Positions 1 through 12,283 of a stretch of DNA of 12,283 nt are shown here, in pieces. The stretch lies in the UHGV virus genome UHGV-0153572, one strand, 5' to 3'. Origin of the DNA: a virus. The notes under the pieces were generated by a model. The model saw only the letters and a program-made list of their open reading frames with translations. It was not told where the DNA came from and ran no database searches. A program made the translations under genes and the position numbers. Numbering within the stretch: the stretch's first letter is position 1; every line of letters begins with the position of its first letter.

Positions 1-272
1 AGTAAGGCCAAACGCCTTAAAACGGTTGCAGGGGCATAGATTTTCAACCATTCATCTCTCAGCTTGGCGACATCGGCACTCCTGATGCTGGCCATATAGT
101 TTTTCGCCAGCTGAGTGCCTTTTAGTATCCGCACCAATGATTGGTCTTGCACTGCCCCTTTTTTGTCGGGAACAATCTCTTTTTCATATCGCGTTAGGGC
201 TTCATACAATGTCGTAGATTCCGCTTCGCTGCGGCTAAGCCAAACTCCTCTCGCCATTTCTGACTCGATCAT
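1..272 (-). CDS. Partial CDS (N-terminal ~90 codons; continues past the window start): putative tyrosine recombinase/integrase, core-binding N-terminal region
   Basis: Minus-strand ORF with ATG at 272..270 (alternative in-frame ATG at 284..282), open to position 1. Translation MIESEMARGVWLSRSEAESTTLYEALTRYEKEIVPDKKGAVQDQSLVRILKGTQLAKNYMASIRSADVAKLRDEWLKIYAPATVLRRLAL. The RYEK ... NYM(A/S)-I ... TVxRRLALL spacing resembles the core-binding domain of lambda-Int-type recombinases. Not in the ORF track because it is cut by the window edge. Confidence 0.4.
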   Translation of the reverse strand, partial: MIESEMARGVWLSRSEAESTTLYEALTRYEKEIVPDKKGAVQDQSLVRILKGTQLAKNYMASIRSADVAKLRDEWLKIYAPATVLRRLAL

Positions 273-501
273 TTTTGGGAACATACAATGTAATTAAAAT
301 AGACCCAGCTTACCGCCCTGCACCTATTGAACACAAAGATGTTGAGAGGGAAAACCTCGTTTACGGATTTGAGCTTCCCATTGGTAGTTACCACGTTTGC
401 GTATAGTCGCCATTTCTGTCTGATTCCTAACGAACTGTGGCAATATTGTGGCAAAAAATCCATTTAAATTCGATAGGTATTGATTTTACAAGATCAATTT
501 A

Positions 502-550
502 CGCATTCGTAATGCGAAGGTCGTAGGTTCGACTCCTATTATCGGCACCA
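502..550 (+). tRNA. Orphan 3' fragment (49 nt) of a tRNA-Thr(CGU) gene (thrW-type): anticodon arm, variable loop, T-arm, 3' acceptor strand and CCA; putative prophage att core, not a complete tRNA
   Basis: Sequence CGCATTCGTAATGCGAAGGTCGTAGGTTCGACTCCTATTATCGGCACCA matches, from memory, the 3' two-thirds of enterobacterial tRNA-Thr(CGU), including the GGTTCGACTCC T-arm and terminal CCA. The 27 nt upstream (475-501) do not match the 5' acceptor/D-arm, so no cloverleaf can form. Confidence 0.8.
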
Positions 551-564
551 TTTAAATCAATAAG

Positions 565-1728
565 TTACACATCATTAGTACCTTCCTTATTTTTTGACTG
601 GGACAAATTTGGGACCGATGGGTTCAGGATCGAGTCTATTTGCCGTGCGTGTTCGGTAAGGTGATTAGGTGCAAGGTGAGCATATCGACGAACCATTTCG
701 ATAGACTCCCACCCTCCCATTTCCTGTAACACTGACAACGGGACTCCGGCTTGAACCAGCCAACTTGCCCAGGTGTGTCTCAAGTCGTGAAATCTGAAAT
801 CATCAATACCAGCCCGTCTCAGCGCCGCTTTCCAGGCTGTGTTTGCGTCATACCGCATCTTCCTTACTGTTGGCGCTTTCGTTCCGTCTGGTTTGGTACA
901 GCTTTCCTTGTACACAAATACCCAACGGTGATGATTCCCGATTTGTTTTTTCAATACGCGACATGCAGTATCATTCAGCGCAACGCCAATTGCGCGGTTT
1001 GATTTACTCTCTTCCGGGTTTATCCATGCCACCCGGCGCTGCATATCTATTTGTTGCCATTCAAGGTTGATGATGTTCGAGCGTCTTAAACCTGTTGCCA
1101 GTGCAAATTCAACAACAGACTTTAATGGCTCCGGACATTCATCAATCAGCCTTTGTGCTTCATGGGGCTCCAGCCAGCGGATCCGTTTATTCTTTGGTTG
1201 AGGCACTTTAATAATTGGTGCCTTATCCAGCATTTTCCATTCACGCTCTGCGGCTCTTAGTAGGGCCTTTATAAATGAAAGATGCGTAGCCTTCGTTGCA
1301 ACGGACGCTGGTTTTGGCGTGTATTCTGGAACAGGTTTCCCTTTTTTTCTGCATGCTTCTGCCCTGAGTTTCCAGTTTTCCTCATGACGCCGGTTCGTCA
1401 TTTTCTGCATTGCTGAATAAATTTTTGATTCAGTAATGTCTCTTAGTTGCATTCCTGCGAAATGTTGAAGCCAGAATCCGATCCGGCTTTTGTCATCGTC
1501 CAGTGATTTTTTATGTGCTTTCTCTTCAAGCCACCTGACACACGCTTCCTCGAACGTTATATCAGGTATTTCACCAAGTTTGCTGACCCGCCATGCTTCA
1601 GCCTTTAGCTTGTCATGGAGTTCTGTCGCCTGCCTTTTGTCCTTTGTTCCAAGAGACTGTTTAAATCTTTTACCGTTCGGCAATGTGAAACTGGCGTACC
1701 ATATTTCACCTCTGCGGAAGAGTGACAT
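565..1728 (-). CDS. int: Site-specific tyrosine integrase, phage P22 Int-type (387 aa)
   Basis: 387-aa ORF with ATG at 1728..1726 preceded by an AGGAAAG/GAGG Shine-Dalgarno. C-terminal catalytic signature of tyrosine recombinases ([39 protein letters not shown], with R...HxxR...Y). Length and N-terminus ([24 protein letters not shown]) resemble P22 Int as remembered. Its 3' end lies 15 bp from the tRNA-Thr att core. Confidence 0.93.
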
Positions 1729-1955
1729 TTTCTTTCCTCTGTTATGCCATCACCCGCGCTCACCTGGACAGTATGCAGCGGAGACTGAAGAGCCGCAATG
1801 CAGGCTTGTCGTGTTGTGAGGTAAGGAGATTTATTCTTAGTGGGATCTTTGCGTGTTGCCTGAAGACGCCCTGTGCGTATCCAGTTAATGGCAGTCGGTC
1901 TGGATATCTTGAGAAAATGACAGGCCTCATCGAGTGTGAGGCTGTATGGCTCCAT
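1605..1955 (-). CDS. xis: Excisionase (Xis), helix-turn-helix excisionase family, 116 aa
   Basis: ATG at 1955..1953 with GAGGTG Shine-Dalgarno 6 nt upstream. N-terminus [33 protein letters not shown] fits the excisionase/AlpA-type HTH pattern. It overlaps the int start by ~120 nt, as in P22 xis-int. The ORF-track entry 1605..2039 is trimmed to the internal Met with an RBS. Confidence 0.75.
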
Positions 1956-2260
1956 TATTTCACCTCTTGCTGTGACATTGTTGAAAAATGGATACCAGCT
2001 CGTTGCTGCCAGACGATCCAACCGAGAGTCATATCCCATGCCATGTATTCGTTATCGCCGTTTTTTGCTCTCCGACGATCTACTAAGTCACCGAAACGCT
2101 TTTCCATGAATAATTCATAAGCTTCGCGTTCATCTGGTTCTACTTCCAGCGATAGGAGTGCGATTTCATAAGCACGGCGCTCAATATCGTCTCGCACGTC
2201 AAGGCTGCTGATACGCTCTTTAATTTCTTTAATCAGTTCTTTGTCGGTAAAAGTGATCAT
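1955..2260 (-). CDS. Hypothetical phage accessory protein (101 aa), acidic, no recognised domain
   Basis: ATG at 2260..2258. Its TAA stop (1957..1955) overlaps the xis ATG (TAATG), indicating translational coupling within the leftward operon. Sequence MITFTDKELIKEIKERISSLDVRDDIERRAYEIALL... Confidence 0.55.
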   Translation of the reverse strand: MITFTDKELIKEIKERISSLDVRDDIERRAYEIALLSLEVEPDEREAYELFMEKRFGDLVDRRRAKNGDNEYMAWDMTLGWIVWQQRAGIHFSTMSQQEVK

Positions 2261-2622
2261 TATGCTCCAGCCTCCGGTGCTTTTGGCATTATTGCCCAGT
2301 GAGTGATATTGACGTTTTCAAGGTCCCCGACCTGAAATGTCCACAGCCATTCTCCGGTTTCTTTTTGTCCCCAGGTGTACCAGAGAGAACGCCAGCCAAT
2401 TAGCCAGCCTTCTCCGTTAGCATCAAATAACAAAACACTTTCATTTGCTGGTGGCAGTTCAGCTGACACTGGTATTACTTTGTTTTCCTGTGCTGCACAT
2501 TTAGCTTCAAGCGCATCGAATTTACGCACCAGGTATTCAGCATCTGTTTCATTTACTTTCAGATCTCGCGGTACACATCTCCCACGAAGAAACCCTTCCA
2601 TTTCGAAAACATTCATGCGCAT
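2260..2622 (-). CDS. DUF551-like phage protein (118-120 aa)
   Basis: C-terminal Trp-rich block WLIGWRSLWYTWGQKETGEWLW...ITHWAIMPKAPE resembles the DUF551 signature (...THWMPLPEPP) common in lambdoid early-left regions. Candidate starts are ATG 2622 or ATG 2616; the latter overlaps the stop of the upstream HD gene (ATGA). Its stop overlaps the next gene's ATG (TAATG at 2258-2262). Confidence 0.6.
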   Translation of the reverse strand: MRMNVFEMEGFLRGRCVPRDLKVNETDAEYLVRKFDALEAKCAAQENKVIPVSAELPPANESVLLFDANGEGWLIGWRSLWYTWGQKETGEWLWTFQVGDLENVNITHWAIMPKAPEAGA

Positions 2623-3149
2623 TTGCGTAACTCCGATAACTCGTTAAAACGTTCCATAAACATCCCGTAGGCATGGCCCGGTGCCTGTGGAATCACTTTG
2701 AACATCTCTGTTGCCGGGATACCTTCCAGTACAGGCCAGAAAGAGCCATCATCAAGCCCGAGATCGCGGCGTTCGGTTGCCAGCATAATGAGATCGGCAT
2801 ATTTCACTGGCGTGCTCATAACAGGAGGTAACCCGTATTTCTCACGTATTACGGCGTCTATTTTTTCTTCCATCCGTTTATAGTCAGGAAGAAGTCGTTT
2901 CAGTGGTGCGGGGATGTCCTGGCAATATGCTTCTGTTGCATCATGCATTAAAGCTTCAAAAGCAAATTCCTGTGGCACCAGCTGGCTGCAAAGCACCGCA
3001 TGTTGGGCGACACTGTAGAAGTGTGAAAGATGTCCTGCAAAGCGACAGATATTTGAAAGGGAAACCGCGATATCGTTAATAACGATGTCGTCTTTATTTA
3101 TCCTGTCATAATAAAAATGCTTCCCGGAAAAAGTTTTAATAAATGACAT
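2613..3149 (-). CDS. HD-domain metal-dependent phosphohydrolase (178 aa from ATG 3149; the ORF extends to a GTG at 3176)
   Basis: H...HD motif context (VAQHAVLCSQ ... EALMHDATEAY) and later acidic residues typical of the HD phosphohydrolase superfamily. ATG 3149..3147 has a GGAGA Shine-Dalgarno 5 nt upstream; the longer ORF-track version starts at GTG 3176 without an obvious RBS. Confidence 0.7.
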   Translation of the reverse strand: MSFIKTFSGKHFYYDRINKDDIVINDIAVSLSNICRFAGHLSHFYSVAQHAVLCSQLVPQEFAFEALMHDATEAYCQDIPAPLKRLLPDYKRMEEKIDAVIREKYGLPPVMSTPVKYADLIMLATERRDLGLDDGSFWPVLEGIPATEMFKVIPQAPGHAYGMFMERFNELSELRKCA

Positions 3150-3273
3150 TTTGTTCTCCACGTATATGCGCTGCACCGCGCTGAATTCGGGTAAAAGGAA
3201 GCCCTCACCGTCCGGCGATTATTGAGTCAATTACATTTCCATAAATGCCCCCGTAGGGGCGGTTAGTTTCTCC

Positions 3274-3362
3274 ACAAAACAGAGAAGAACACCTGCGGTG
3301 GCAGCCGCCCGGATGGATTGGGTTATGAGCCCGTCGTCCGGTGATGCTCTTCTCTGTTTTGT
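3274..3362. repeat. 15-bp perfect inverted repeat (ACAAAACAGAGAAGA at 3274-3288; TCTTCTCTGTTTTGT at 3348-3362) with a 59-bp spacer, in the divergent intergenic region
   Basis: Direct reading: reverse complement of 3274-3288 equals 3348-3362 exactly. Lies between the leftward (int-proximal) and rightward operons. A GC-rich hairpin (GCCCC-CGTA-GGGGC, 3247-3260) lies just upstream. Confidence 0.6.
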
Positions 3363-3407
3363 AAAAAGGACGGTATCCGCCTGACGGCTAATCAGGCATA
3401 TCACCAG

Positions 3408-3611
3408 ATGGTGAAGCTGGGGATCGTCGAGCAGCGCGAACGATACAGCCGTACCGCGATTAACAACATCAAAAAATTCTGGTCGCTGACAGCGAAAGGC
3501 TGCATGTTCGGCAAGAACATCACCAGTCCTGCAAATCCGCGCGAGACGCAGCCGCATTTCTTCGAATCCCGATTCCCTGAGCTGTTAAAGCTGCTCGATA
3601 CCGTTCATTGA
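3408..3611 (+). CDS. Possible small hypothetical protein (67 aa); weak call
   Basis: ATG ORF ending 1 nt before the start of the next gene; amino-acid composition is more protein-like than the overlapping minus-strand 108-aa ORF. No strong RBS identified; could equally be non-coding regulatory sequence. Confidence 0.25.
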   Translation: MVKLGIVEQRERYSRTAINNIKKFWSLTAKGCMFGKNITSPANPRETQPHFFESRFPELLKLLDTVH

Positions 3612-3612
3612 G

Positions 3613-4608
3613 GTGACCGTGAGAGCACTACTGACCCCTGAAATAGCCCCGCGTATGGGGATCGTATTGTTCAGACCCGGTTCAGAGCTGATGCCCCTGT
3701 TTATGCAGGGGCGTGTCCTGCTGGAGCCTGAGCCGGAACGTTATTCATCTTTCGCCAGTGGTGCCGTTCCCGCGGCATCACAACCGCTGGCGGATGATCC
3801 TGCCGTTCGAGCCGTGTTCTGCAATGAGGCAGTGATCCGTCGTGCTGGTGGCGTGGAATGTCTTGAAAGCTGGTTACTTCGTGAAAAGGGCTGTCAGTGG
3901 CCTCATTCCGACTGGCACAGCGAGAACATGACCACAATGCGACACGCGCCGGGCGCGATCCGTCTGTGCTGGCACTGCGATAACCAGCTGCGCGATCAGT
4001 TCACGGAACGGCTGGAATCAATGGCAACGGATAACTGTGCCCGCTGGGTGTTGTCTGTTGTGCGTCGGGATCTCGGTTTTGATGACAGTCACGTTGTGAC
4101 AATGCCGGAACTGTGCTGGTGGCTGATTCGTAATGACCTGGCGGATGCCTTACCGGAAAGTGCAGCCCGTAAGGCACTGAGATTACCGAAGCCTGTTGTG
4201 CCGTCTGTCACCCGGGAAAGTGACCTTGTGCCTTCGGTTCCTGCCACCAGCATCATCCAGGATAAGGCGAAAAAGGTGCTGGCGCTGAAAGTGGATCCGG
4301 AGTCGCCGGAGTCTTTTATGTTACGCCCAAAACGTCGCCGCTGGGTTAATGAAAAGTACACGCGCTGGGTTAAGACACAGCCGTGTGCATGTTGTGGAAA
4401 GCCTGCTGATGATCCCCACCACCTGATAGGCCACGGTCAGGGTGGGATGGGTACAAAAGCGCATGACCTCTTTGTGTTGCCTTTGTGCAGAAAGCATCAC
4501 GACGAGCTGCATGCGGATACCGTGGCATTTGAAGAGAAGTATGGCTCCCAGCTGGAGCTGATATTTCGTTTTATCGATCGTGCGCTGGCAATAGGCGTAC
4601 TGGCGTAA
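3613..4608 (+). CDS. DUF968-like phage protein with C-terminal HNH/zinc-binding nuclease-like motif (~330 aa)
   Basis: C-terminal CACCGKPADDPHHLIGHGQGGMGTKAHDLFVLPLCRKHHDELH has Cys pairs and HH...H spacing like HNH-type modules. Overall architecture resembles the DUF968 (YdfU-type) proteins of lambdoid nin regions as remembered. Start is GTG 3613, or GTG 3619 with a GAGGTG Shine-Dalgarno. Confidence 0.7.
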   Translation: MTVRALLTPEIAPRMGIVLFRPGSELMPLFMQGRVLLEPEPERYSSFASGAVPAASQPLADDPAVRAVFCNEAVIRRAGGVECLESWLLREKGCQWPHSDWHSENMTTMRHAPGAIRLCWHCDNQLRDQFTERLESMATDNCARWVLSVVRRDLGFDDSHVVTMPELCWWLIRNDLADALPESAARKALRLPKPVVPSVTRESDLVPSVPATSIIQDKAKKVLALKVDPESPESFMLRPKRRRWVNEKYTRWVKTQPCACCGKPADDPHHLIGHGQGGMGTKAHDLFVLPLCRKHHDELHADTVAFEEKYGSQLELIFRFIDRALAIGVLA

Positions 4609-4621
4609 GTGGAGAACGAGC

Positions 4622-5350
4622 ATGAACCTTGAAGCTTTACCAAAATATTACTCCCCAAAATCTCCAAAATTGAGTGATGACGCACCGGCGACAGGCTCGG
4701 GTGGTTTAACAATTACAGATGTGATGGCTGCGCAGGGGATGGTGCAGTCGAAAGCACCGCTTGGGTTTGCCTTATTCCTGGCAAAAGTTGGTGTTCAGGA
4801 TCCTCAGTTTGCGATTGAAGGTCTGCTCAATTACGCGATGGCACTGGATAACCCGACATTGAACAAATTGAGTGAAGAAATCCGGTTACAGATCATCCCT
4901 TACCTTGTGAATTTTGCCTTTGCTGATTATTCCAGGTCTGCGGCAAGTAAGGCTCGCTGTGAGCATTGTGCTGGTACTGGATTTCATAATGTATTGCGCG
5001 AGGTGGTGAAACACTCCAGAAGCGGGGAATCTGTTATCAAGGAAGAGTGGGTGAAGGAACTATGTCAGCATTGTCATGGTAAGGGAGAAGTCAGCACAGC
5101 GTGCAGAGGGTGTAAGGGTAAAGGTATTGTCCTGGATGAAAAAAGGACCCGGCTTCATGGCACGCCTGTTTATAAGATTTGTGGGCGTTGCAATGGAAAC
5201 CGATTTAGCCGTTTACCAACCACACTGGCGCGGAATCATGTCCAGAAGCTGGTACCAGACCTGCCGAAGATCTGGGAAAAGTCACTTTCCGCCCGTCCAT
5301 CACGGCTTATGTGGTGGGAGATGACTGCTTTGACCAGCGCGATCGCCTGA
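4622..5350 (+). CDS. Phage antitermination protein Q-like protein with DnaJ-type zinc-finger repeats (242 aa); C-terminus possibly chimeric
   Basis: ATG 4622 with GGAGA Shine-Dalgarno. Four CxxCxGxG-type motifs (CEHCAGTG, CQHCHGKG, CRGCKGKG, CGRCNGNR; nt ~4958-5191). Resembles, from memory, the Q-type antiterminators of E. coli lambdoid prophages that sit next to a DUF968 gene. The last ~30 codons overlap, in another frame, DNA homologous to the DNA-circulation gene. Confidence 0.65.
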   Translation: MNLEALPKYYSPKSPKLSDDAPATGSGGLTITDVMAAQGMVQSKAPLGFALFLAKVGVQDPQFAIEGLLNYAMALDNPTLNKLSEEIRLQIIPYLVNFAFADYSRSAASKARCEHCAGTGFHNVLREVVKHSRSGESVIKEEWVKELCQHCHGKGEVSTACRGCKGKGIVLDEKRTRLHGTPVYKICGRCNGNRFSRLPTTLARNHVQKLVPDLPKIWEKSLSARPSRLMWWEMTALTSAIA

Positions 5351-6465
5351 TTGACGCGCTGAATAAACCCGGTCCCGGCACGCTTGTCCACCCGACATAC
5401 GGTGAGTTGAAAGTCTGTGTTGACGGGGAAGTTCGGGTCAGCACATCGAAGAGTGAAGGGCGTATTGTCCGCTTTGACCTGAAGTTTGTCGAAGCGGGAG
5501 ATCTCTCTTACCCCACATCAGGCGTGGCGACGGCGCAGACGCTGATGTCATCCTGTTCTGCACTGGATGACTGCATCAGTGACAGCTTCAGCGGTTTCAG
5601 TATCGATGGCGTGGCAGATTTTGTGCAGAACGACGTCGTCGGTAATGTCGGCACAATGCTTGGGTATGTTTCTGATGCGATGAAAGTGGTGGATTCTGCC
5701 GTATCGGATGCCGCCAGGCTGTTGCAGGGGGATATCTCGGTACTTCTTCCGCCGCCATCGTCAGGCAAAAATTTCGTTGAGCAGGTGCAGAAAATGTGGC
5801 GTACCGGGAAACGCCTTTATGGTAACGCCAGCGACCTGGTCACCATGATCAAAACGCTTTCCGGTGTCAGCCTTGGCAGCGATCTGCAACCGCGCGGCGT
5901 CTGGAAAACGGACAGTAAAACCACCGCCACGGCGACGCAGCAGCGTAACGTGGTTGCCAGCACCCTTCGTACGACCGCAATCAGCGAAGCGGCGTATGTC
6001 GTCACACGATTGCCTGCGCCCACAACTTCCGCGGTGATGCAGAATGCCACAGTGGGGCAGTCAACAACACCCGCGCAGAGCACCGGCTGGCCTTCTGTCA
6101 CGCATCCGGCACTGAACAATGCACCGGCGGTGAAAAACACGGTTGACCTGCCAACGTGGGAAGAACTGACCGACATTCGCGACACACTGAATACGGCAAT
6201 TGATAAGGAGTTGTCCCGTACAACCAGTGATGCGCTGTTTCTGGTGCTGCGCCGGGTGAAAGCAGATCTGAATGCGGATATCAACACGCGCCTTGAACAG
6301 TCTGCACGGATCATTCAGCGCACGCCGGATGAGGTTTTACCCGCGCTGGTGCTGGCGGCGACCTGGTTTGATAACGCGGCGCGTGACGCGGACATTATCC
6401 GGCGTAATGCCATTACGCATCCCGGCTTTGTGCCGGTGATCCCTCTGAAGGTGCCAGTGCAATGA
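5311..6465 (+). CDS. Mu-type DNA circulation protein (gpN family), N-terminally truncated; possible pseudogene
   Basis: Contains the family block AYVVGDDCFDQRDRLIDALNKPGPGTLVHPTYGELKV. The frame is open upstream only to 5209 (in-frame TAG at 5206-5208) and similarity begins around AEDLGK (~5263). The first possible start is GTG 5311 with no RBS, so ~45-60 N-terminal residues of a typical homologue are absent. Confidence 0.75.
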   Translation: MVGDDCFDQRDRLIDALNKPGPGTLVHPTYGELKVCVDGEVRVSTSKSEGRIVRFDLKFVEAGDLSYPTSGVATAQTLMSSCSALDDCISDSFSGFSIDGVADFVQNDVVGNVGTMLGYVSDAMKVVDSAVSDAARLLQGDISVLLPPPSSGKNFVEQVQKMWRTGKRLYGNASDLVTMIKTLSGVSLGSDLQPRGVWKTDSKTTATATQQRNVVASTLRTTAISEAAYVVTRLPAPTTSAVMQNATVGQSTTPAQSTGWPSVTHPALNNAPAVKNTVDLPTWEELTDIRDTLNTAIDKELSRTTSDALFLVLRRVKADLNADINTRLEQSARIIQRTPDEVLPALVLAATWFDNAARDADIIRRNAITHPGFVPVIPLKVPVQ

Positions 6466-7541
6466 ACGACAATGTCACGCTACGGGTAAATGGCCGGGAG
6501 TGGAATGGCTGGACATCGGTGCGCATCGGTGCCGGTATTGAACGGCTGGCGCGGGATTTCAGTGTGGAGATCACCCGCCAGTGGCCGGGAGATGAGGGTA
6601 TCACCACGCTTCAGCCGCGCATTAAAAACGGTTCAAAAGTGGAAGTGCTGATTGGTGATGAGCTGGTGATCACCGGCTGGGTGGAGGCGACGCCCGTTCG
6701 TTACGATGCCCGTTCGGTCAGCACCGGTATTGCCGGACGTAGTCTGACGGCTGACCTGATTGACTGTGCAGCCGAACCGACACAGTTTAACGGACGCTCG
6801 CTGGTGCAGATTGCGCAGGCGCTTGCTGCGCCTTTCGGCATTGAGGTGGTGAACAGCGGTGCGCCGTCGGGTGTTATTCCTGATGTTCAGCCTGATCACG
6901 GTGAAACGGTGATTGAGGTAATAAACAAAATACTCGGTCAGCAGCAGGCGCTGGCTTACGACGACCCGCACGGCAGGCTGGTGATTGGCGGTATTGGCTC
7001 AACGCGGGCACATACCGCGCTGGTACTTGGGGAAAACATCCTTTCCTGCGATACGGAGAAGAGTATCCGGGAGCGGTTTTCTGTTTACCAGGTGGCGGGG
7101 CAGCGTGCCGGAAACGACGATGATTTCGGTGAGGTCACCACCACCGCGCTGCGGGCCCGCACAGAGGACGCATTTATTGCCCGTTACCGTCCGATGTATA
7201 TCAGGCAGACAGGGCAGGCCACGGGGGCAGGCTGTATTGCGCGTGCTGACTTTGAAGCCCGACAACGGGCGGCGCGGACGGATGAAACCACCTATGTGGT
7301 GCAGGGCTGGCGACAGGGTAACGGTACGCTGTGGCAGCCCAACCAGCGGGTGATTGTCTTTGATCCGGTCTGTGGTTTCGACAATACCGAACTGCTTGTC
7401 TCGGAAGTCACGTTTACTCAGGACCAGAACGGCACCCTGACGGAAATCCGTGTCGGCCCGCCTGATGCTTATCTGCCTGAACCCGAAGCCCCCGGCGCGC
7501 GGAAAAAGAAAAAAGCCAGAGTACAGGAGGACCCGTTCTGA
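6462..7541 (+). CDS. Mu gpP-type tail/baseplate protein (phage late control D / baseplate hub family), 359 aa
   Basis: ATG 6462 overlaps the upstream stop (ATGA). Size, position directly after the DNA-circulation gene and sequence character fit the Mu P / P2 gpD family. Part of a tightly overlapping operon. Confidence 0.8.
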   Translation: MNDNVTLRVNGREWNGWTSVRIGAGIERLARDFSVEITRQWPGDEGITTLQPRIKNGSKVEVLIGDELVITGWVEATPVRYDARSVSTGIAGRSLTADLIDCAAEPTQFNGRSLVQIAQALAAPFGIEVVNSGAPSGVIPDVQPDHGETVIEVINKILGQQQALAYDDPHGRLVIGGIGSTRAHTALVLGENILSCDTEKSIRERFSVYQVAGQRAGNDDDFGEVTTTALRARTEDAFIARYRPMYIRQTGQATGAGCIARADFEARQRAARTDETTYVVQGWRQGNGTLWQPNQRVIVFDPVCGFDNTELLVSEVTFTQDQNGTLTEIRVGPPDAYLPEPEAPGARKKKKARVQEDPF

Positions 7542-8089
7542 TGAGGACGATTGAAGCCATGCAGCGACAACTTCTCGGCCTGATTGCGCGGGCAGTGGTG
7601 AAAAGCATCAGTGCCGCCACGAAATGTCAGACCGTGGATGTGTCCCTGATTGCCGGTGAACCCAAAGCCGGGGTTGAACATCTTGAACCCTACGGTTTTA
7701 CCGCAAGGGCAAACAGCGGCGCGGAAGCGGTGGTGTTGTTTCCGGATGGCGACCGTTCTCATGCGGTGGTTGTTACGGTGTCGGACCGGCGCTACCGCCT
7801 GAAAGGGTTGCAGACGGGTGAGGTGGCTGTCTATGACGATCAGGGGCAGTCTGTGACGCTGACCCGGGAGGGGATCGTGGTGGACGGTGCAGGTAAAACG
7901 ATCACGTTTCGCAATTCACCTAAAGCACGTTTTGAAATGGACCTGGAAGTGACAGGACAGGTGAAAGACCTGTGCGACTCCAGCGGCACTACCATGTCAG
8001 CGATGCGGCTTGCCTATAACGGGCATCGTCACAGAGAGAACGGTCAGGGCAGTAACACCGACAAACCGGATAAAGCGATGGAGGCATGA
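7541..8089 (+). CDS. Baseplate assembly protein V-type (Mu gp45-like spike protein), 182 aa
   Basis: ATG 7541 overlaps the upstream TGA (TGATG), with an AGGAGG Shine-Dalgarno. N-terminal region MRTIEAMQRQLLGLIARAVVKSI...GEPKAGVEHLEPYGFTARA is typical of the phage baseplate V family. Confidence 0.8.
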   Translation: MRTIEAMQRQLLGLIARAVVKSISAATKCQTVDVSLIAGEPKAGVEHLEPYGFTARANSGAEAVVLFPDGDRSHAVVVTVSDRRYRLKGLQTGEVAVYDDQGQSVTLTREGIVVDGAGKTITFRNSPKARFEMDLEVTGQVKDLCDSSGTTMSAMRLAYNGHRHRENGQGSNTDKPDKAMEA

Positions 8090-8514
8090 TGGAACTGTGG
8101 CTGACGGTGAACGGTAAACGCACCTGCGCCAGCGCACCGCTGGATCCGCTGACCCGCGCCGTGGTGATTTCCCTGTTTACCTGGCGGCGGGCGGAGCCTG
8201 ATGACAACGCCGACGTCCCGATGGGATGGTGGGGGGATACCTGGCCTGCGGTACAGAATGACCGTTACGGCTCCCGACTGTGGCTGCTTCAGCGCAGCAA
8301 ACTGACCAATCAGCTGGTGCAGACAGTAAGGGGGTATATCCGCGAATGCCTGCAATGGATGATTGATGACGGCGTGGTGTCCCGTATTGATCTGGATATC
8401 CGCCGCACCGGGATTAATGAGCTGGGTAACAGTATCACCCTCTGGCGTCGTGACGGACCGGTAATGATTTCTTTTGATGATCTGTGGAGTGCGATAACGC
8501 ATGGCGGACAGTGA
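8086..8514 (+). CDS. Phage GP46-family baseplate protein (Mu gp46 / gpW-like), 142 aa
   Basis: ATG 8086 overlaps the upstream stop, with a GGAGG Shine-Dalgarno. Small protein in the conserved position between the V-type and J-type baseplate genes. Confidence 0.8.
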   Translation: MMELWLTVNGKRTCASAPLDPLTRAVVISLFTWRRAEPDDNADVPMGWWGDTWPAVQNDRYGSRLWLLQRSKLTNQLVQTVRGYIRECLQWMIDDGVVSRIDLDIRRTGINELGNSITLWRRDGPVMISFDDLWSAITHGGQ

Positions 8515-9559
8515 ATTTCAGCGCCCGACGCTGGCAGAAAATATCAGTATGCTCCGTAACGATTTATTCGCCAGGCTGGACGTCAGCGACACGCTCCGGC
8601 GCATGGATGAAGACGTGCGGGCAAAGGTGTATGCGGCGGCGCTGCATACGGTTTACGGGTACATCGATTATCTGGCAATGAACATGCTGCCTGACCTGTG
8701 CGATGAGTCCTGGCTGGCGCGACATGCTGCGATGAAACGGTGTCCGCGCAAGGGGGCCACGGCTGCCAGCGGGTATATGCGTTGGGAAGGTGTCAGCGAT
8801 GGCCTGAAGGTGACCGCCGGGAGTGTTATTCAGCGCGATGACCTGGTTCAGTACACGGCAACTGCCGATGCAACCAGCTCCGGTGGTGTCCTGCGCGTGC
8901 CGATCGCCTGCTCAAGTGCAGGCGCGGTCGGTAACGCTGACGACGGTACGTCATTAATCCTGGTCACGCCGGTTAATGGTCTGCCGTCTTCCGGCGTGGC
9001 AGATACCCTTACAGGCGGATTTGATACTGAAGAGCTGGAAACGTGGCGCGCCCGCGTCATTGAGCGGTATTACTGGACGCCTCAGGGCGGGGCTGACGGG
9101 GACTATGTCGTCTGGGCTAAAGAAGTGCCCGGCATTACCCGCGCATGGACATACCGTCACTGGATGGGAACGGGAACTGTCGGTGTGATGATTGCCAGCA
9201 GTGACCTGATTAATCCCATTCCGGAAGAATCAACGGAAACGGCAGCAAGACAACATATCGGGCCACTGGCCCCGGTGGCAGGCTCTGATTTGTATGTATT
9301 CAGGCCGGTGGCACATACGGTGGATTTTCATATCCGCGTGACGCCGGACACACCGGAAATACGGGCTGCCATTACCGCGGAGTTGCGTTCGTTCCTGCTG
9401 CGTGATGGTTATCCGCAGGGAGAACTGAAGGTATCGCGTATCAGTGAGGCGATTTCCGGTGCGAACGGGGAATACAGCCATCAGTTGCTTGCACCGGTGG
9501 ACAATATCTCCATTGCGAAAAACGAACTGGCGGTACTGGGGACGATTTCATGGACGTGA
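8501..9559 (+). CDS. Baseplate J-like protein (Mu gp47 family), 352 aa
   Basis: ATG 8501, overlapping the upstream gene by 14 nt. Size and synteny (after gp46-like, before the DUF2313 gene) fit the Baseplate_J family. Confidence 0.8.
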
Positions 9560-10134
9560 CAAACGATGATTACATCCGCCTGTTATCGGCACTGTTGCCG
9601 CCCGGTCCGGCGTGGTCAGCCAGCGATCCGGCGATTGCCGGTGCGGCACCGTCATTAACCCGTGTTCATCAGCGTGCGGATGCCCTGATGCGGGAGCTGG
9701 ATCCGCGCACCACCACTGAACTGATAAACCGCTGGGAGCGTCTGTGCGGTCTGCCGGATGAATGTATTCCGGCGGGAACGCAGACCCTTCGCCAGCGTCA
9801 GCAACGGCTGGATGCGAAGGTTAACCTGGCGGGCGGCATCAACGAGGATTTTTATCTTGCACAGCTTGCTGCCCTGGGCAGACCAGATGCCACCATCACG
9901 CGATACGACAAAAGCACGTTCACCTGCTCATCGGCCTGTACTGACGCGGTGAATGCGCCGGAATGGCGGTATTACTGGCAGGTCAACATGCCAGCCGCCA
10001 CCAACACCACCTGGATGACATGTGGCGATCCCTGTGATTCCGCACTGCGTATCTGGGGTGACACCGTTGTCGAGTGTGTGCTTAACAAACTCTGCCCGTC
10101 GCATACCTACGTAATTTTTAAATATCCGGAGTAA
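9550..10134 (+). CDS. DUF2313 tail protein (Mu gp48 / P2 gpI-like; YmfQ-type), 194 aa
   Basis: ATG 9550, overlapping the upstream gene by 10 nt. N-terminus [22 protein letters not shown]... and the Cys-rich C-terminus resemble, from memory, the YmfQ/DUF2313 proteins encoded immediately upstream of tail-fibre genes. Confidence 0.8.
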
Positions 10135-10137
10135 TCC

Positions 10138-10902
10138 ATGCATCGTATAGACACGAAAACCGCGCAGAAGGATAAGTTCGGCGCGGGTAAGAACGGTTTT
10201 ACCCGTGGTAACCCCCAGACCGGCACGCCTGCCACCGATCTGGATGATGACTACTTTGACATGTTGCAGGAAGAGCTTTGTGGCGTGGTGGAGGCATCCG
10301 GTGCCAGCCTGGAGAAGGGGCGGCATGACCAGCTGCTTACCGCGCTTCGTGCGCTGCTGTTAAGCCGCAAGAATCCGTTTGGCGATATCAAATCGGATGG
10401 CACCGTGAAAACGGCTCTCGAAAACCTTGGTTTGGGAGAAGGTGCTCCAGCTATTGGCGTTCCGTTCTTCTGGCCGTCCGCTGCAATGCCAAATACTGTA
10501 ATCGACAGCTGGTCCGGTATGGTGTTTTTGAAGTTCAACGGCGCGAAATTCTCTGCCACTGATTACCCTGTGCTGGCGAAAGTGTTTCCTTCGCTGGTAT
10601 TACCTGAAGCCCGCGGTGATTTCATTCGTATCTGGGATAATGGTCGTGGTGTAGATAGTGGACGTGGATTACTTAGTACGCAGTCTGACCTGATGAAACA
10701 ATTTACTTTGCAATACTACGGTCCTTCTGCTGGTACTGGAACAAGAACGGTTTTCGCCCTCCAGAGTAATGCGAACGGCATATATACGAGTGGTATTAGT
10801 CAGAATGATGGTAGTGGCACCGCTGCGGCTTTTAATGTACCAGGCGGCACCGAAACACGCCCACGTAACATTGCATTCAACTTTTTAGTAAGGGCTAAAT
10901 AA
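10138..10902 (+). CDS. Tail fibre protein (S-type): conserved N-terminal baseplate-attachment region plus variable C-terminal receptor-binding region, 254 aa
   Basis: ATG 10138 with GGAG Shine-Dalgarno. N-terminus [55 protein letters not shown] is the conserved tail-fibre constant region. Codons ~93-101 ([10 protein letters not shown]) are encoded by a Hin/Gin-type crossover-like site. The AT-richer downstream part is the variable region. Confidence 0.85.
10415..10440. other. Candidate Hin/Gin/Cin/Pin-family DNA-invertase crossover site inside the tail-fibre gene
   Basis: CTCTCGAAAACC-TT-GGTTTGGGAGAA: 26 bp with near-symmetric 12-bp arms around a central dinucleotide. It matches the remembered hixL (TTCTTGAAAACCAAGGTTTTTGATAA) at 19/26 positions and shares the AAACC/GGTTT core with gix. 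It sits at the constant/variable junction of the fibre gene, as gix does in Mu S. Confidence 0.55.
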
Positions 10903-11495
10903 TGAAACCTGTTTTTGATAAAAATGGGCTGGCTACAGTACCGGGTGATATGCGTTGTTTTTATTATGATGCAGTAACGTCTGAATATACTGGCTGGTCT
11001 GATGAATATATTAATACTGGTGTAAGTATGCCCGCCTGTTCCACTGGTATTGACCCGGGCGAATACATTCCGGGGAAAGTGGCAGTATTTACGGGTAAGG
11101 GATGGAGCCATGAAGAAGACCACCGCAATGAGACTGCTTACTCAATCGAAAATGGCGCAGCTGTTACAGTGGATTATATCGGTGCCATCAAAGACGGTTA
11201 TGTCACGCTTTCACCGTTAACGCCATACGATAAATGGGATGGTGAGAAATGGGTGACAGATACTGAGGCACAGCATAGTGCCTCAGTAGACGCGGCAGAA
11301 GCACAGCGCCAGTCGCTGATTGATGCTGCAATGGCTTCCATCAGTCTGATTCAACTGAAATTGCAGGCCGGGCGGAAGCTGACGCAGGCAGAAACAACCC
11401 GACTTAACGCCGTGCTGGATTACATTGACGCGGTGACGGCAACAGATACCAGCACCGCGCCGGATATCATCTGGCCTGAACAGCCGGAGGCGTAG
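10902..11495 (+). CDS. Tail fibre assembly chaperone (Tfa / Mu U-type), 197 aa
   Basis: ATG 10902 overlaps the tail-fibre stop (TAATG). N-terminus [36 protein letters not shown] and C-terminal DTSTAPDIIWPEQPEA are characteristic of the Tfa family. Confidence 0.9.
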   Translation: MKPVFDKNGLATVPGDMRCFYYDAVTSEYTGWSDEYINTGVSMPACSTGIDPGEYIPGKVAVFTGKGWSHEEDHRNETAYSIENGAAVTVDYIGAIKDGYVTLSPLTPYDKWDGEKWVTDTEAQHSASVDAAEAQRQSLIDAAMASISLIQLKLQAGRKLTQAETTRLNAVLDYIDAVTATDTSTAPDIIWPEQPEA

Positions 11496-11907
11496 GCCAT
11501 TCAATATCTGGAGCACTGGAAGTATCGACCAGTTCCAGTGCGTCAAGATAATCCAGCCATAAATTATATTGCGCCAGTTCCTCACCTTTCAGACGACCAA
11601 TAGCAGCCTTTCCTGGCCACTGCTTACTGTTAATATATTCATTAACTCGATTTATGAGTGCCTGTTTTTTTCGTTCCGCTTCTGACAGTTGTTCTTCATG
11701 AGTTAGCGGCGGTACGTCATCCCATGCAGGATAGCCATCATCACCCGCAACTCTCACTTTCCCTGGAGGTGGGGACAGGTACTTAATAAATATATCCTCA
11801 TCAACTTCAACTCCATTATGAGGCCATAACCCAGACTTCTTATACTGACTTTCCAGAGTAAATGGGTAAAACATATTAGTTTTAGCATCGTAAAGATATT
11901 TACTCAT
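11467..11907 (-). CDS. Second tail fibre assembly chaperone (Tfa'-type), inverted orientation, 146 aa
   Basis: ATG 11907..11905 with AGGAAG Shine-Dalgarno 7 nt upstream. C-terminus ...LVDTSSAPDIEWPTPPAVQAR carries the Tfa family motif. Its 3' end overlaps the plus-strand tfa 3' end convergently by 29 nt. The ORF-track version (to 12006) is trimmed to the Met with an RBS. Confidence 0.8.
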   Translation of the reverse strand: MSKYLYDAKTNMFYPFTLESQYKKSGLWPHNGVEVDEDIFIKYLSPPPGKVRVAGDDGYPAWDDVPPLTHEEQLSEAERKKQALINRVNEYINSKQWPGKAAIGRLKGEELAQYNLWLDYLDALELVDTSSAPDIEWPTPPAVQAR

Positions 11908-11908
11908 T

Positions 11909-12283
11909 TTATCTTCCTGTGGCAAACCAGCGGCAACCAGCGACAGTTGGAACATTGAAGGATGGATTTCCTTTATCAAGAGATCCCAGGTTATCTGCCA
12001 TGACACTTGAGTTAGTCAATTGATAGAATTGCCATACTGACATTTTCCCTGGCACAGGAGCATGGTCATGTTCATTAATAGAAATGACGCCTGTCGGAAA
12101 TGGGATAGGAAAATTAATCAAAACTTCATTTATTGTGGCCCCAGTTAGCCCCCATTGTTCAATATAACCATCCGGGCTTCGCCTCCATCCCGTCGTTGTA
12201 TCTCCCCAAAAGCCAAGAACTCGGACATTGGCAGCAGCACCAGCATGTGGATCAGTGCTACATCCATTTTGGTATCTCTTGCA
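11909..12283 (-). CDS. Partial CDS (C-terminal 124 codons; 5' end beyond the window): alternative tail-fibre C-terminal (receptor-binding) region
   Basis: Minus-strand frame is open from the window end to the TAA at 11911..11909, 1 nt before the tfa' start. Translation ...ANVRVLGFWGDTTTGWRRSPDGYIEQWGLTGATINEVLINFPIPFPTGVISINEHDHAPVPGK... contains the PDGxIxQWG-type motif of tail-fibre distal domains and a diverged copy of the LGxGxG junction. Confidence 0.7.
   Translation of the reverse strand, partial: CKRYQNGCSTDPHAGAAANVRVLGFWGDTTTGWRRSPDGYIEQWGLTGATINEVLINFPIPFPTGVISINEHDHAPVPGKMSVWQFYQLTNSSVMADNLGSLDKGNPSFNVPTVAGCRWFATGR

Follow-up and report, generated by a model that had tools for sequence, protein, structure and literature searches.

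Baseplate genes stranded by deletion in a probable defective prophage of the SfV/e14 family at the Escherichia coli thrW site

The virus genome UHGV-0153572, a stretch of 12,283 nucleotides (nt) which we analysed at its full length and refer to as the window, carries a run of Mu-type baseplate genes with no accompanying tail sheath, tube or tape-measure gene, and this raises the question of whether these genes are the remains of a phage tail or a module that still works. The first-pass annotation of this DNA, made from the sequence alone, had offered two answers: a decaying remnant like the tail region of e14, or a module that depends on tail components encoded elsewhere. Our analysis supports the first of these. 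We consider the window to be, with a probability of about 0.93, a defective prophage of the SfV/SfIV/SfI/e14 family at the tRNA-Thr gene thrW beside proA. Members of this family are temperate phages that combine lambdoid early genes and HK97-type heads with a Mu-type contractile tail. The element has decayed by deletion and not by point mutation: two deletions by illegitimate recombination gutted the prophage of 6.4 kb of immunity and replication genes and 16.3 kb of late genes, with five complete baseplate genes, the fibre genes and an invertible segment surviving only as they lay distal to the deletion end point. An element such as this is of an already known and thoroughly described kind, being a prophage made defective by deletion, from a described family of which e14 is a textbook member, and the pseudogenes of this particular form are already flagged in RefSeq.

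Positions 5264–10134 encode, in six consecutive + strand open reading frames (ORFs), homologues of Mu gp43 (truncated), gp44/P, gp45, gp46, gp47 and gp48, with Pfam E-values that range from 1e-10 to 1e-52. Pfam and the ORF coordinates (Table 1) therefore bear out the earlier description of six baseplate genes in a row with overlapping start and stop codons, the first of them truncated. The + strand is a single run of tightly packed ORFs from 3613 to 11495, and the order from the gp43 to the gp48 homologue, followed by fibre and fibre-assembly genes, is collinear and ungapped with SfIV 12137–17314 at 97.7% identity. The module is not at full length throughout, the gp43 homologue being cut while the other five genes are full length. 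The baseplate hub matches the solved Mu gp44 (1wru/9ki1) end to end (E = 2e-50) and differs from the SfIV protein by 1 amino acid (aa). No sheath, tube or tape-measure gene was found upstream of the module in the window by Pfam on both strands, as had also been claimed, and the genes present there are limited to an integrase, an excisionase-like helix-turn-helix (HTH) gene, yfdT, yfdS and yfdR, a KilA-N fragment, a DUF968 gene and the antiterminator gene Q.

The truncation of the gp43 homologue, annotated as a DNA-circularization protein, is apparent from several comparisons. Homology to DNA-circularization proteins starts at position 5264, which corresponds to nt 176 of SfIV gp14, and the Pfam DNA_circ_N match on 5311–6465 covers profile positions 55–88 of 88 only (the final third). 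The alignment to the Mu gp43 structure (9ki1) extends over residues 62–485 and likewise begins at residue 62. It should be noted that 5311 is merely the first in-frame GTG past the junction, and that the frame has no earlier start.

The missing sequence can be seen in E. coli strain 113 (NZ_CP028680.1), which has a near-complete prophage at proA–thrW, the same site as the window element. This prophage encodes immunity, replication, KilA-N, DUF968, Q, lysis, iss, HNH, terminase, portal, protease, capsid and connector functions, followed by tail terminator, sheath, tube, chaperone, tape measure, DNA-circularization, baseplate, fibres and pinE. It retains the early region and all 16.3 kb of the late genes, and has an IS3 insertion sequence (IS) in addition. 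The left-arm early genes of the window are 99.4% identical to those of strain 113 and of the O157:H7 strain TX 376-2, the identity with strain 113 over the baseplate region is 98.4–98.8%, and the protein accessions of Int, gpP, gp45 and gp46 are identical between strain 113 and the remnant in strain TUM10008, which shares the junction described below. The window is collinear with the strain 113 prophage save for two gaps. The early gap, which on these prophages separates the sequence of window positions 502–3384 from that of 3372–5266, amounts to 6,351 nt when compared with O157:H7 TX 376-2 and to 7,665 nt when compared with strain 113, which has the extra IS3, and took with it the repressor, cro, ymfL, the replication genes, PerC, a methylase, RusA and the 5' part of the KilA-N gene (whole, at 810 nt, in both of these strains).

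The late gap runs from 642 nt into Q (codon ~214), which is intact at 753 nt in O157:H7 TX 376-2 and strain 113, to nt 176 of the DNA-circularization gene, so that on the reverse complement of strain 113 window position 5263 corresponds to 16016 and position 5264 to 32296. Lost here were the region downstream of Q, the lysis cassette, the terminase, portal, capsid and connector genes, and those for sheath, tube, chaperone and tape measure. A three-way sequence comparison found no repeats, IS or meaningful microhomology at 5263|5264. The Q and DNA-circularization fragments lie in different frames at the junction, and the Q frame continues to 5350 by reading 29 foreign codons from out-of-frame DNA-circularization sequence. 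Both fragments are flagged as pseudogenes by the NCBI Prokaryotic Genome Annotation Pipeline (PGAP) in two RefSeq genomes, TUM10008 and E4. The window thus has the features of a cryptic prophage: an integrase with the thrW attachment (att) core at a known phage integration site, the loss of lytic modules relative to strain 113, O157:H7 TX 376-2 and SfIV, and genes cut at the junctions (those for KilA-N, Q and DNA circularization). The att core recurs at the far end of the prophages in USMARC-49610 and O157:H7 TX 376-2, where 47–52 nt of the att region are repeated at both ends, and at the far end in TUM10008 with 1 mismatch; the exact core was also found in SfIV attP and in all of the related loci that we examined.

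The first-pass annotation had considered two outcomes that would speak for other readings, frameshifts or premature stops on careful alignment and tail genes lying just outside the window. Alignment to SfIV and USMARC-49610 revealed no frameshifts, internal stops or length changes in the five complete baseplate genes, and no sheath, tube or tape-measure genes were found in the 8 kb upstream or ~25 kb downstream of the TUM10008 element.

Comparison with known relatives places the window within a series of intact and deleted forms. SfIV, SfV, SfI and SfII share 97.7–98% nucleotide identity with it over the int–yfdR arm, the KilA-N fragment to DUF968 and 5264–10441, as well as the same gene order and attachment core (the myovirus SfI, a relative of SfV and e14, has thrW as its integration site; PMC3636060). 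Unlike the window, however, the four phages are complete and can be induced; by the att site they have gtr genes for O-antigen modification, whereas the relatives of the window lack gtr and have Pin and defence-type cargo, and they have a different Q allele, that of the window matching the Q of the Stx2c-phage type. The jayE–ymfQ region of K-12 e14 is 98.5% identical to window positions 8772–10134, in an element with the gene order beeE'-jayE'-ymfQ-stfP-tfaP-tfaE-stfE-pinE. Both e14 and the window are deletion remnants that have kept the distal baseplate, fibre and Pin-invertible end and are without sheath, tube and tape measure, but their end points differ: in e14 a portal fragment is fused to the truncated J gene and only a part of gp47 and gp48 are left, whereas the window additionally keeps the truncated gp43 homologue, gp44, gp45 and gp46. 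The e14 element also sits in icd (PMC6379469) and not in thrW. The likeness to the e14 tail region that was first proposed has proved to be one of literal homology and not of analogy, with e14 being a separate deletion derivative of the same module.

Two further remnants have other end points. USMARC-49610 has its truncated Q, broken at position 12861 of the prophage locus, fused to a 3' portion of the tape-measure gene, and in O157:H7 TX 376-2 an IS1203 abuts gp46; these two and K-12 e14 are independent deletion variants of the same prophage. We note that just 24 nt separate the left end points of the window and USMARC-49610 deletions, both of them towards the 3' end of Q. This may be chance, or the outcome of a second, nested deletion or of a fragile site. 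A nested origin of the window form from a USMARC-49610-type remnant is neither supported nor excluded, the nearest relative of the baseplate region being strain 113 (98.8%) and not USMARC-49610 (97.8%).

Of 5,426 complete E. coli genomes, 1,428 have some match to the module, and in 1,080 of these the match covers 80% or more of it at about 95–99% identity, whereas some match to the SfIV sheath–tube–tape-measure block is present in 1,089 (~340 fewer), and baseplate-bearing remnants without a sheath are therefore common. Two other systems can be compared with the window element. The baseplate proteins of Mu, gp43–gp48, belong to the same families and are encoded in the same order, though they are distant at the sequence level; unlike Mu, the rest of the window element is lambdoid and not that of a transposable phage, its baseplate set is incomplete and the tape measure is absent. 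R-type tailocins, like the window element, derive from myovirus tail modules kept in bacterial chromosomes. Tailocins retain the sheath, tube, tape measure, regulatory genes and lysis cassette, all of which have been deleted here. Neither the window nor the flanks of the TUM10008 and E4 elements contain the sheath, tube and tape-measure genes of a functional tail or tailocin locus, and the lysis cassette and late regulator of such a locus are missing too, with holin, endolysin and Rz falling within the 16.3-kb deletion and Q truncated.

One explanation adds to the reading as a defective prophage without competing with it. The stranded genes, although functionless in the host, might serve as donors in recombination with related SfV/e14-type phages, with the fibre and Pin cassette as the likeliest donor. 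Partners are common, given the 1,080 genomes in which most of the module is found, and the fibre region is visibly mosaic between relatives. However, no recombination event has been traced to the window copy, and the idea comes from general knowledge of exchange between phages and defective prophages. We regard a reservoir role as possible though rather unlikely; it is compatible with the prophage being defective, to which it would add a consequence and not provide a replacement.

The age of the late deletion bears on whether the surviving genes could have been kept by selection. A 300-nt probe across 5263|5264 was matched in full by 2 of the 5,426 complete E. coli genomes, TUM10008 (Japan) and E4 (USA, poultry; chromosome NZ_CP104516.1), both at 100%, and an exact search with 39 nt of the junction added one further metagenome contig (3 mismatches in 7,789 nt). 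Over 505–10441 TUM10008 differs from the window at 3 positions and E4 at 5, and over the 4.9-kb module (5264–10134) at 0 and 1 positions, respectively. Because the junction is rare and the copies that share it are near-identical, the late deletion is very recent. The only TUM10008 differences in 505–10441 are at 2345, 2394 and 2425, an 81-nt cluster in the yfdS-type gene, and E4 differs from the window at these same positions, which suggests a short recombination patch rather than independent mutations.

When the complete baseplate genes are compared with those of SfIV, the ratio of non-synonymous to synonymous substitution rates (dN/dS) is 0–0.19, and the values are also low against USMARC-49610. 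The comparison across strains that had been proposed as a check for purifying selection returned these low values against SfIV, and only 0–1 substitutions exist among the junction-sharing copies. We rejected low dN/dS as a sign of current selection, these copies being essentially identical. Intact frames and low dN/dS provide no evidence of selection since the deletion because the history of these genes inside working phages precedes it, and both are equally expected from such a history followed by a very recent deletion.

Several losses bear on whether the module could still be expressed and assembled. Late promoters in lambdoid phages lie downstream of Q. In the window this region and the 3' end of Q have both been deleted, and the early promoter region has been lost with the other deletion; a sigma-70 consensus scan found no + strand promoter between 3000 and 11524, though as negative evidence this is weak. 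The tube initiator of Mu is gp43, whose tube-like domain forms the barrel on which the tube nucleates, and the formation of a stable central baseplate is described as inseparable from the tape measure (PMC11915804). The module would be inert as a tail, and a passenger awaiting further decay, because the late-promoter region and the tape measure are gone, as are ~60 residues at the N-terminus of the gp43 homologue, which belong to the tube-like barrel domain. At most, its genes would offer incoming relatives a substrate for homologous recombination.

Whether the missing parts might be supplied from elsewhere in the genome was addressed with a single SfV-type sheath probe at the high-identity sensitivity of megablast, a search which leaves divergent myovirus tails in TUM10008 and E4 outside its scope. 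A single copy of the module is present on the TUM10008 chromosome, where appending the 280-nt sheath probe to the junction probe leaves the count of matching places at 1. In E4 the count rises from 2 to 3, and a second SfV/e14-type prophage, one that includes a sheath gene, is probably present elsewhere in this strain. The search of the rest of the genome proposed by the first-pass annotation thus gave no SfV-type sheath match in TUM10008, with this one probe, and probably one in E4. By analogy with strain 113, a helper prophage in E4 would be expected to bring its own baseplate.

Some observations weigh against the module being inert. The consensus scan leaves read-through transcription from upstream possible, the sheath search was restricted to the SfV-type probe at megablast sensitivity, and the probable second sheath makes provision of the missing parts in trans conceivable in E4. 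The five complete genes are free of stops and frameshifts, and their low dN/dS values against SfIV would also fit continued selection. The fibre segment lies in the opposite orientation to that in TUM10008 and E4, and a part of the element (Pin) is probably still active. A rival explanation would have the module domesticated or dependent in trans, that is, kept by selection and working either with tail parts supplied from a different prophage or by itself, as a complex for receptor binding or exclusion. The intact ORFs and low dN/dS against functional phages favour this, as do the retention of the distal tail end by several independent deletion derivatives of the SfV/e14 family and the probable SfV-type sheath gene in E4; a review citing Bobay et al. 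2014 (PMC6379469) also describes the tail regions of lambdoid prophage remnants as relatively well conserved.

However, with 0–1 base differing in 4.9 kb among copies, selection has had no time to leave a trace. The set opens with a truncated gene, that of the tube initiator, and the deletion has taken both the late promoter region and the 3' end of Q. No cognate sheath was found in TUM10008 with the SfV-type probe, a helper of the same family would bring a complete baseplate, as in strain 113, and only 2 of 5,426 genomes have this form. We consider domestication or dependence in trans highly improbable, and the suggestion that the module depends on tail components encoded elsewhere finds no support from the single copy and absent SfV-type sheath match in TUM10008 or from the loss of the late promoter, gp43 N-terminus and tape measure. 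A mis-join of Q to the DNA-circularization gene during assembly can be dismissed almost with certainty, for although the window has at least one apparent chimeric patch (277–342) and its last 76 nt are unmatched in E. coli, the junction with 150 nt on each side is 100% identical in two independently assembled complete genomes and is also found in the metagenome contig, and the join is therefore not an assembly error.

Beyond the baseplate genes the window continues into a fibre region (Table 1). Homology to the SfIV and SfV fibre gene stops at 10441, and comparable fibre genes of 247–256 aa are found in USMARC-49610 and O157:H7 TX 376-2. Positions 10415–12207, which comprise the variable fibre end and two fibre-assembly genes, are inverted relative to TUM10008 and E4 with 99.9% identity. 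The partner of the crossover site adjoins pinE in TUM10008, beyond the end of the window where the last 76 nt do not match. From this arrangement the Pin invertase probably continues to switch fibres for which the element has no further use. The last 76 nt (12208–12283) form an open, fibre-like - strand frame, but matches to close relatives all end at 12207, and no match was found in complete E. coli genomes or viral contigs. They represent either a fibre variant not yet sampled or a chimeric end of the contig, and look like a chimeric patch of a metagenome-type assembly.

At the other end of the window, no complete tRNA or other RNA gene was identified by ARAGORN or Rfam. PGAP places a 112-nt 'tRNA-Ser' over the att region in TUM10008 (8415–8526 of that locus, about 439–550 of the window), but the sequence is the 3' part of thrW and the label is probably wrong. 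The integrase accession WP_001132557.1 is common to TUM10008, E4 and the near-intact prophage of strain 113. To the left of the left attachment site (attL; window 1–504) lies a different integrative island with its integrase abutting the att core. The window and TUM10008 have this island in common (TrbL, a pPIWI-associated nuclease and VbhA antitoxin), while E4 has instead a CP4-type island (cbtA/cbeA); the identical remnant is therefore found beside different neighbours in a hotspot for tandem islands at thrW.

Within this left-hand sequence, 66 nt at 277–342 are 100% identical to a Phocaeicola vulgatus/Bacteroides housekeeping gene (positions 5049–5114 of the matching locus, inside a 425-aa ORF which, judging by eye, may be PurH-like). 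The patch replaces ~42 nt of the integrase of the neighbouring island, giving two in-frame stops, and was found in none of the complete E. coli genomes; most likely it is no biological feature but a chimera that arose in a gut-metagenome-type assembly. Neither this nor the oddity of the last 76 nt affects the baseplate finding.

Table 1. Features of the 12,283-nt window, with positions, strand and the basis of each assignment.
Feature	Position	Strand	Details
attL, 3' part of tRNA-Thr (thrW); attachment core of SfV-family phages	505..556	+	
Tyrosine integrase	565..1728	-	Pfam Phage_integrase, 3e-48; PGAP version shorter, 372 aa
Left-arm early genes: excisionase-like HTH_17, yfdT, yfdS (DUF551), yfdR (HD 5'-deoxynucleotidase)	1605..3176	-	Pfam, PGAP names
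KilA-N gene fragment, C-terminal part only	3363..3611	+	PGAP pseudogene 'missing N-terminus' in TUM10008, E4
Early-region deletion junction	3372..3384		GGTA microhomology at join
DUF968/HNH-like gene, intact	3613..4608	+	Pfam DUF968, 3.5e-81
Q antiterminator gene without last ~36 codons	4622..5263	+	Pfam Antiterm, 1e-41; PGAP 'missing C-terminus'
Late-region deletion junction	5263..5264		16,279 nt missing compared with strain 113
DNA-circularization / Mu gp43 (tube-initiator) homologue	5264..6465	+	First 59 codons gone; PGAP 'missing N-terminus'
Baseplate hub, Mu gp44/P homologue	6462..7541	+	Intact; Pfam GpP-like_1st, Gp44-like_2nd, GpP_4th
Spike, Mu gp45 homologue	7541..8089	+	Intact; Pfam Phage_Mu_Gp45, 1.5e-24
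Wedge protein 1, Mu gp46 homologue	8089..8514 (ORF start 8086/8089)	+	Intact; Pfam GP46, 6e-33; 0 aa differences from SfIV
Wedge protein 2, Mu gp47 / baseplate J homologue	8501..9559	+	Intact; Pfam Baseplate_J, 1e-52; 4 aa differences from SfIV
Wedge protein 3, Mu gp48 / YmfQ homologue	9550..10134	+	Intact; Pfam Phage_Mu_Gp48, 9e-27; PGAP name ymfQ
Tail fibre gene, 254 aa	10138..10902	+	No Pfam assignment; constant N-terminal part to about 10440, then variable C-terminal part on the invertible segment
Pin/Gin-type 26-nt crossover site, left end of invertible segment	10415..10440	-	Exact site TTCTCCCAAACCAAGGTTTTCGAGAG; 0 expected by chance
Tail fibre assembly gene	10902..11495	+	Pfam Caudo_TAP, 6e-28
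Second tail fibre assembly gene, for alternative fibre	11467..12006	-	Pfam Caudo_TAP, 1.6e-34; PGAP version 441 nt
Alternative variable fibre C-terminal segment, running off window end	12007..12283	-	Open frame; PGAP 'gp53-like / phage tail protein' in relatives

What keeps such an element in the chromosome may lie outside the tail genes. The TUM10008 element is ~19 kb from attL to an attR-like site. Its right end (contig segment 391–7542) contains pinE, a LEM-3-like GIY-YIG protein, a cytosine methyltransferase with a type II restriction endonuclease, DUF6650 and an AbiTii-domain protein, and the attR-like thrW core, with its 1 mismatch, is at 7515–7542 of this right-hand segment. Defence-type cargo at the right end may keep the element in the genome, and the baseplate genes, lying between the integrase arm and the cargo, would simply not yet have been removed. 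Retention of the distal tail recurs in K-12 e14, the O157:H7 thrW remnant, USMARC-49610 and the window form, and this is probably positional, a result of lying between the integrase and beneficial right-end cargo, and not selected; that it reflects selection for a switchable receptor-binding or exclusion complex, or for a reservoir of fibre cassettes, seems to us very unlikely.

The importance of the finding beyond housekeeping is little, and the 'baseplate' annotations that genome annotators and prophage finders will meet at this locus should not be taken to indicate a tailocin or a novel minimal injection device. The element nevertheless provides a clean, datable case of a myovirus prophage disabled by a single large deletion, with the parent and sibling deletion forms at the same site, and illustrates that reading frames may be intact in a prophage remnant without this being a sign of function, if the deletion that inactivated it is recent. 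The stranded genes are 95–99% identical to modules in about one complete E. coli genome in five, and related phages could therefore regain them by recombination.

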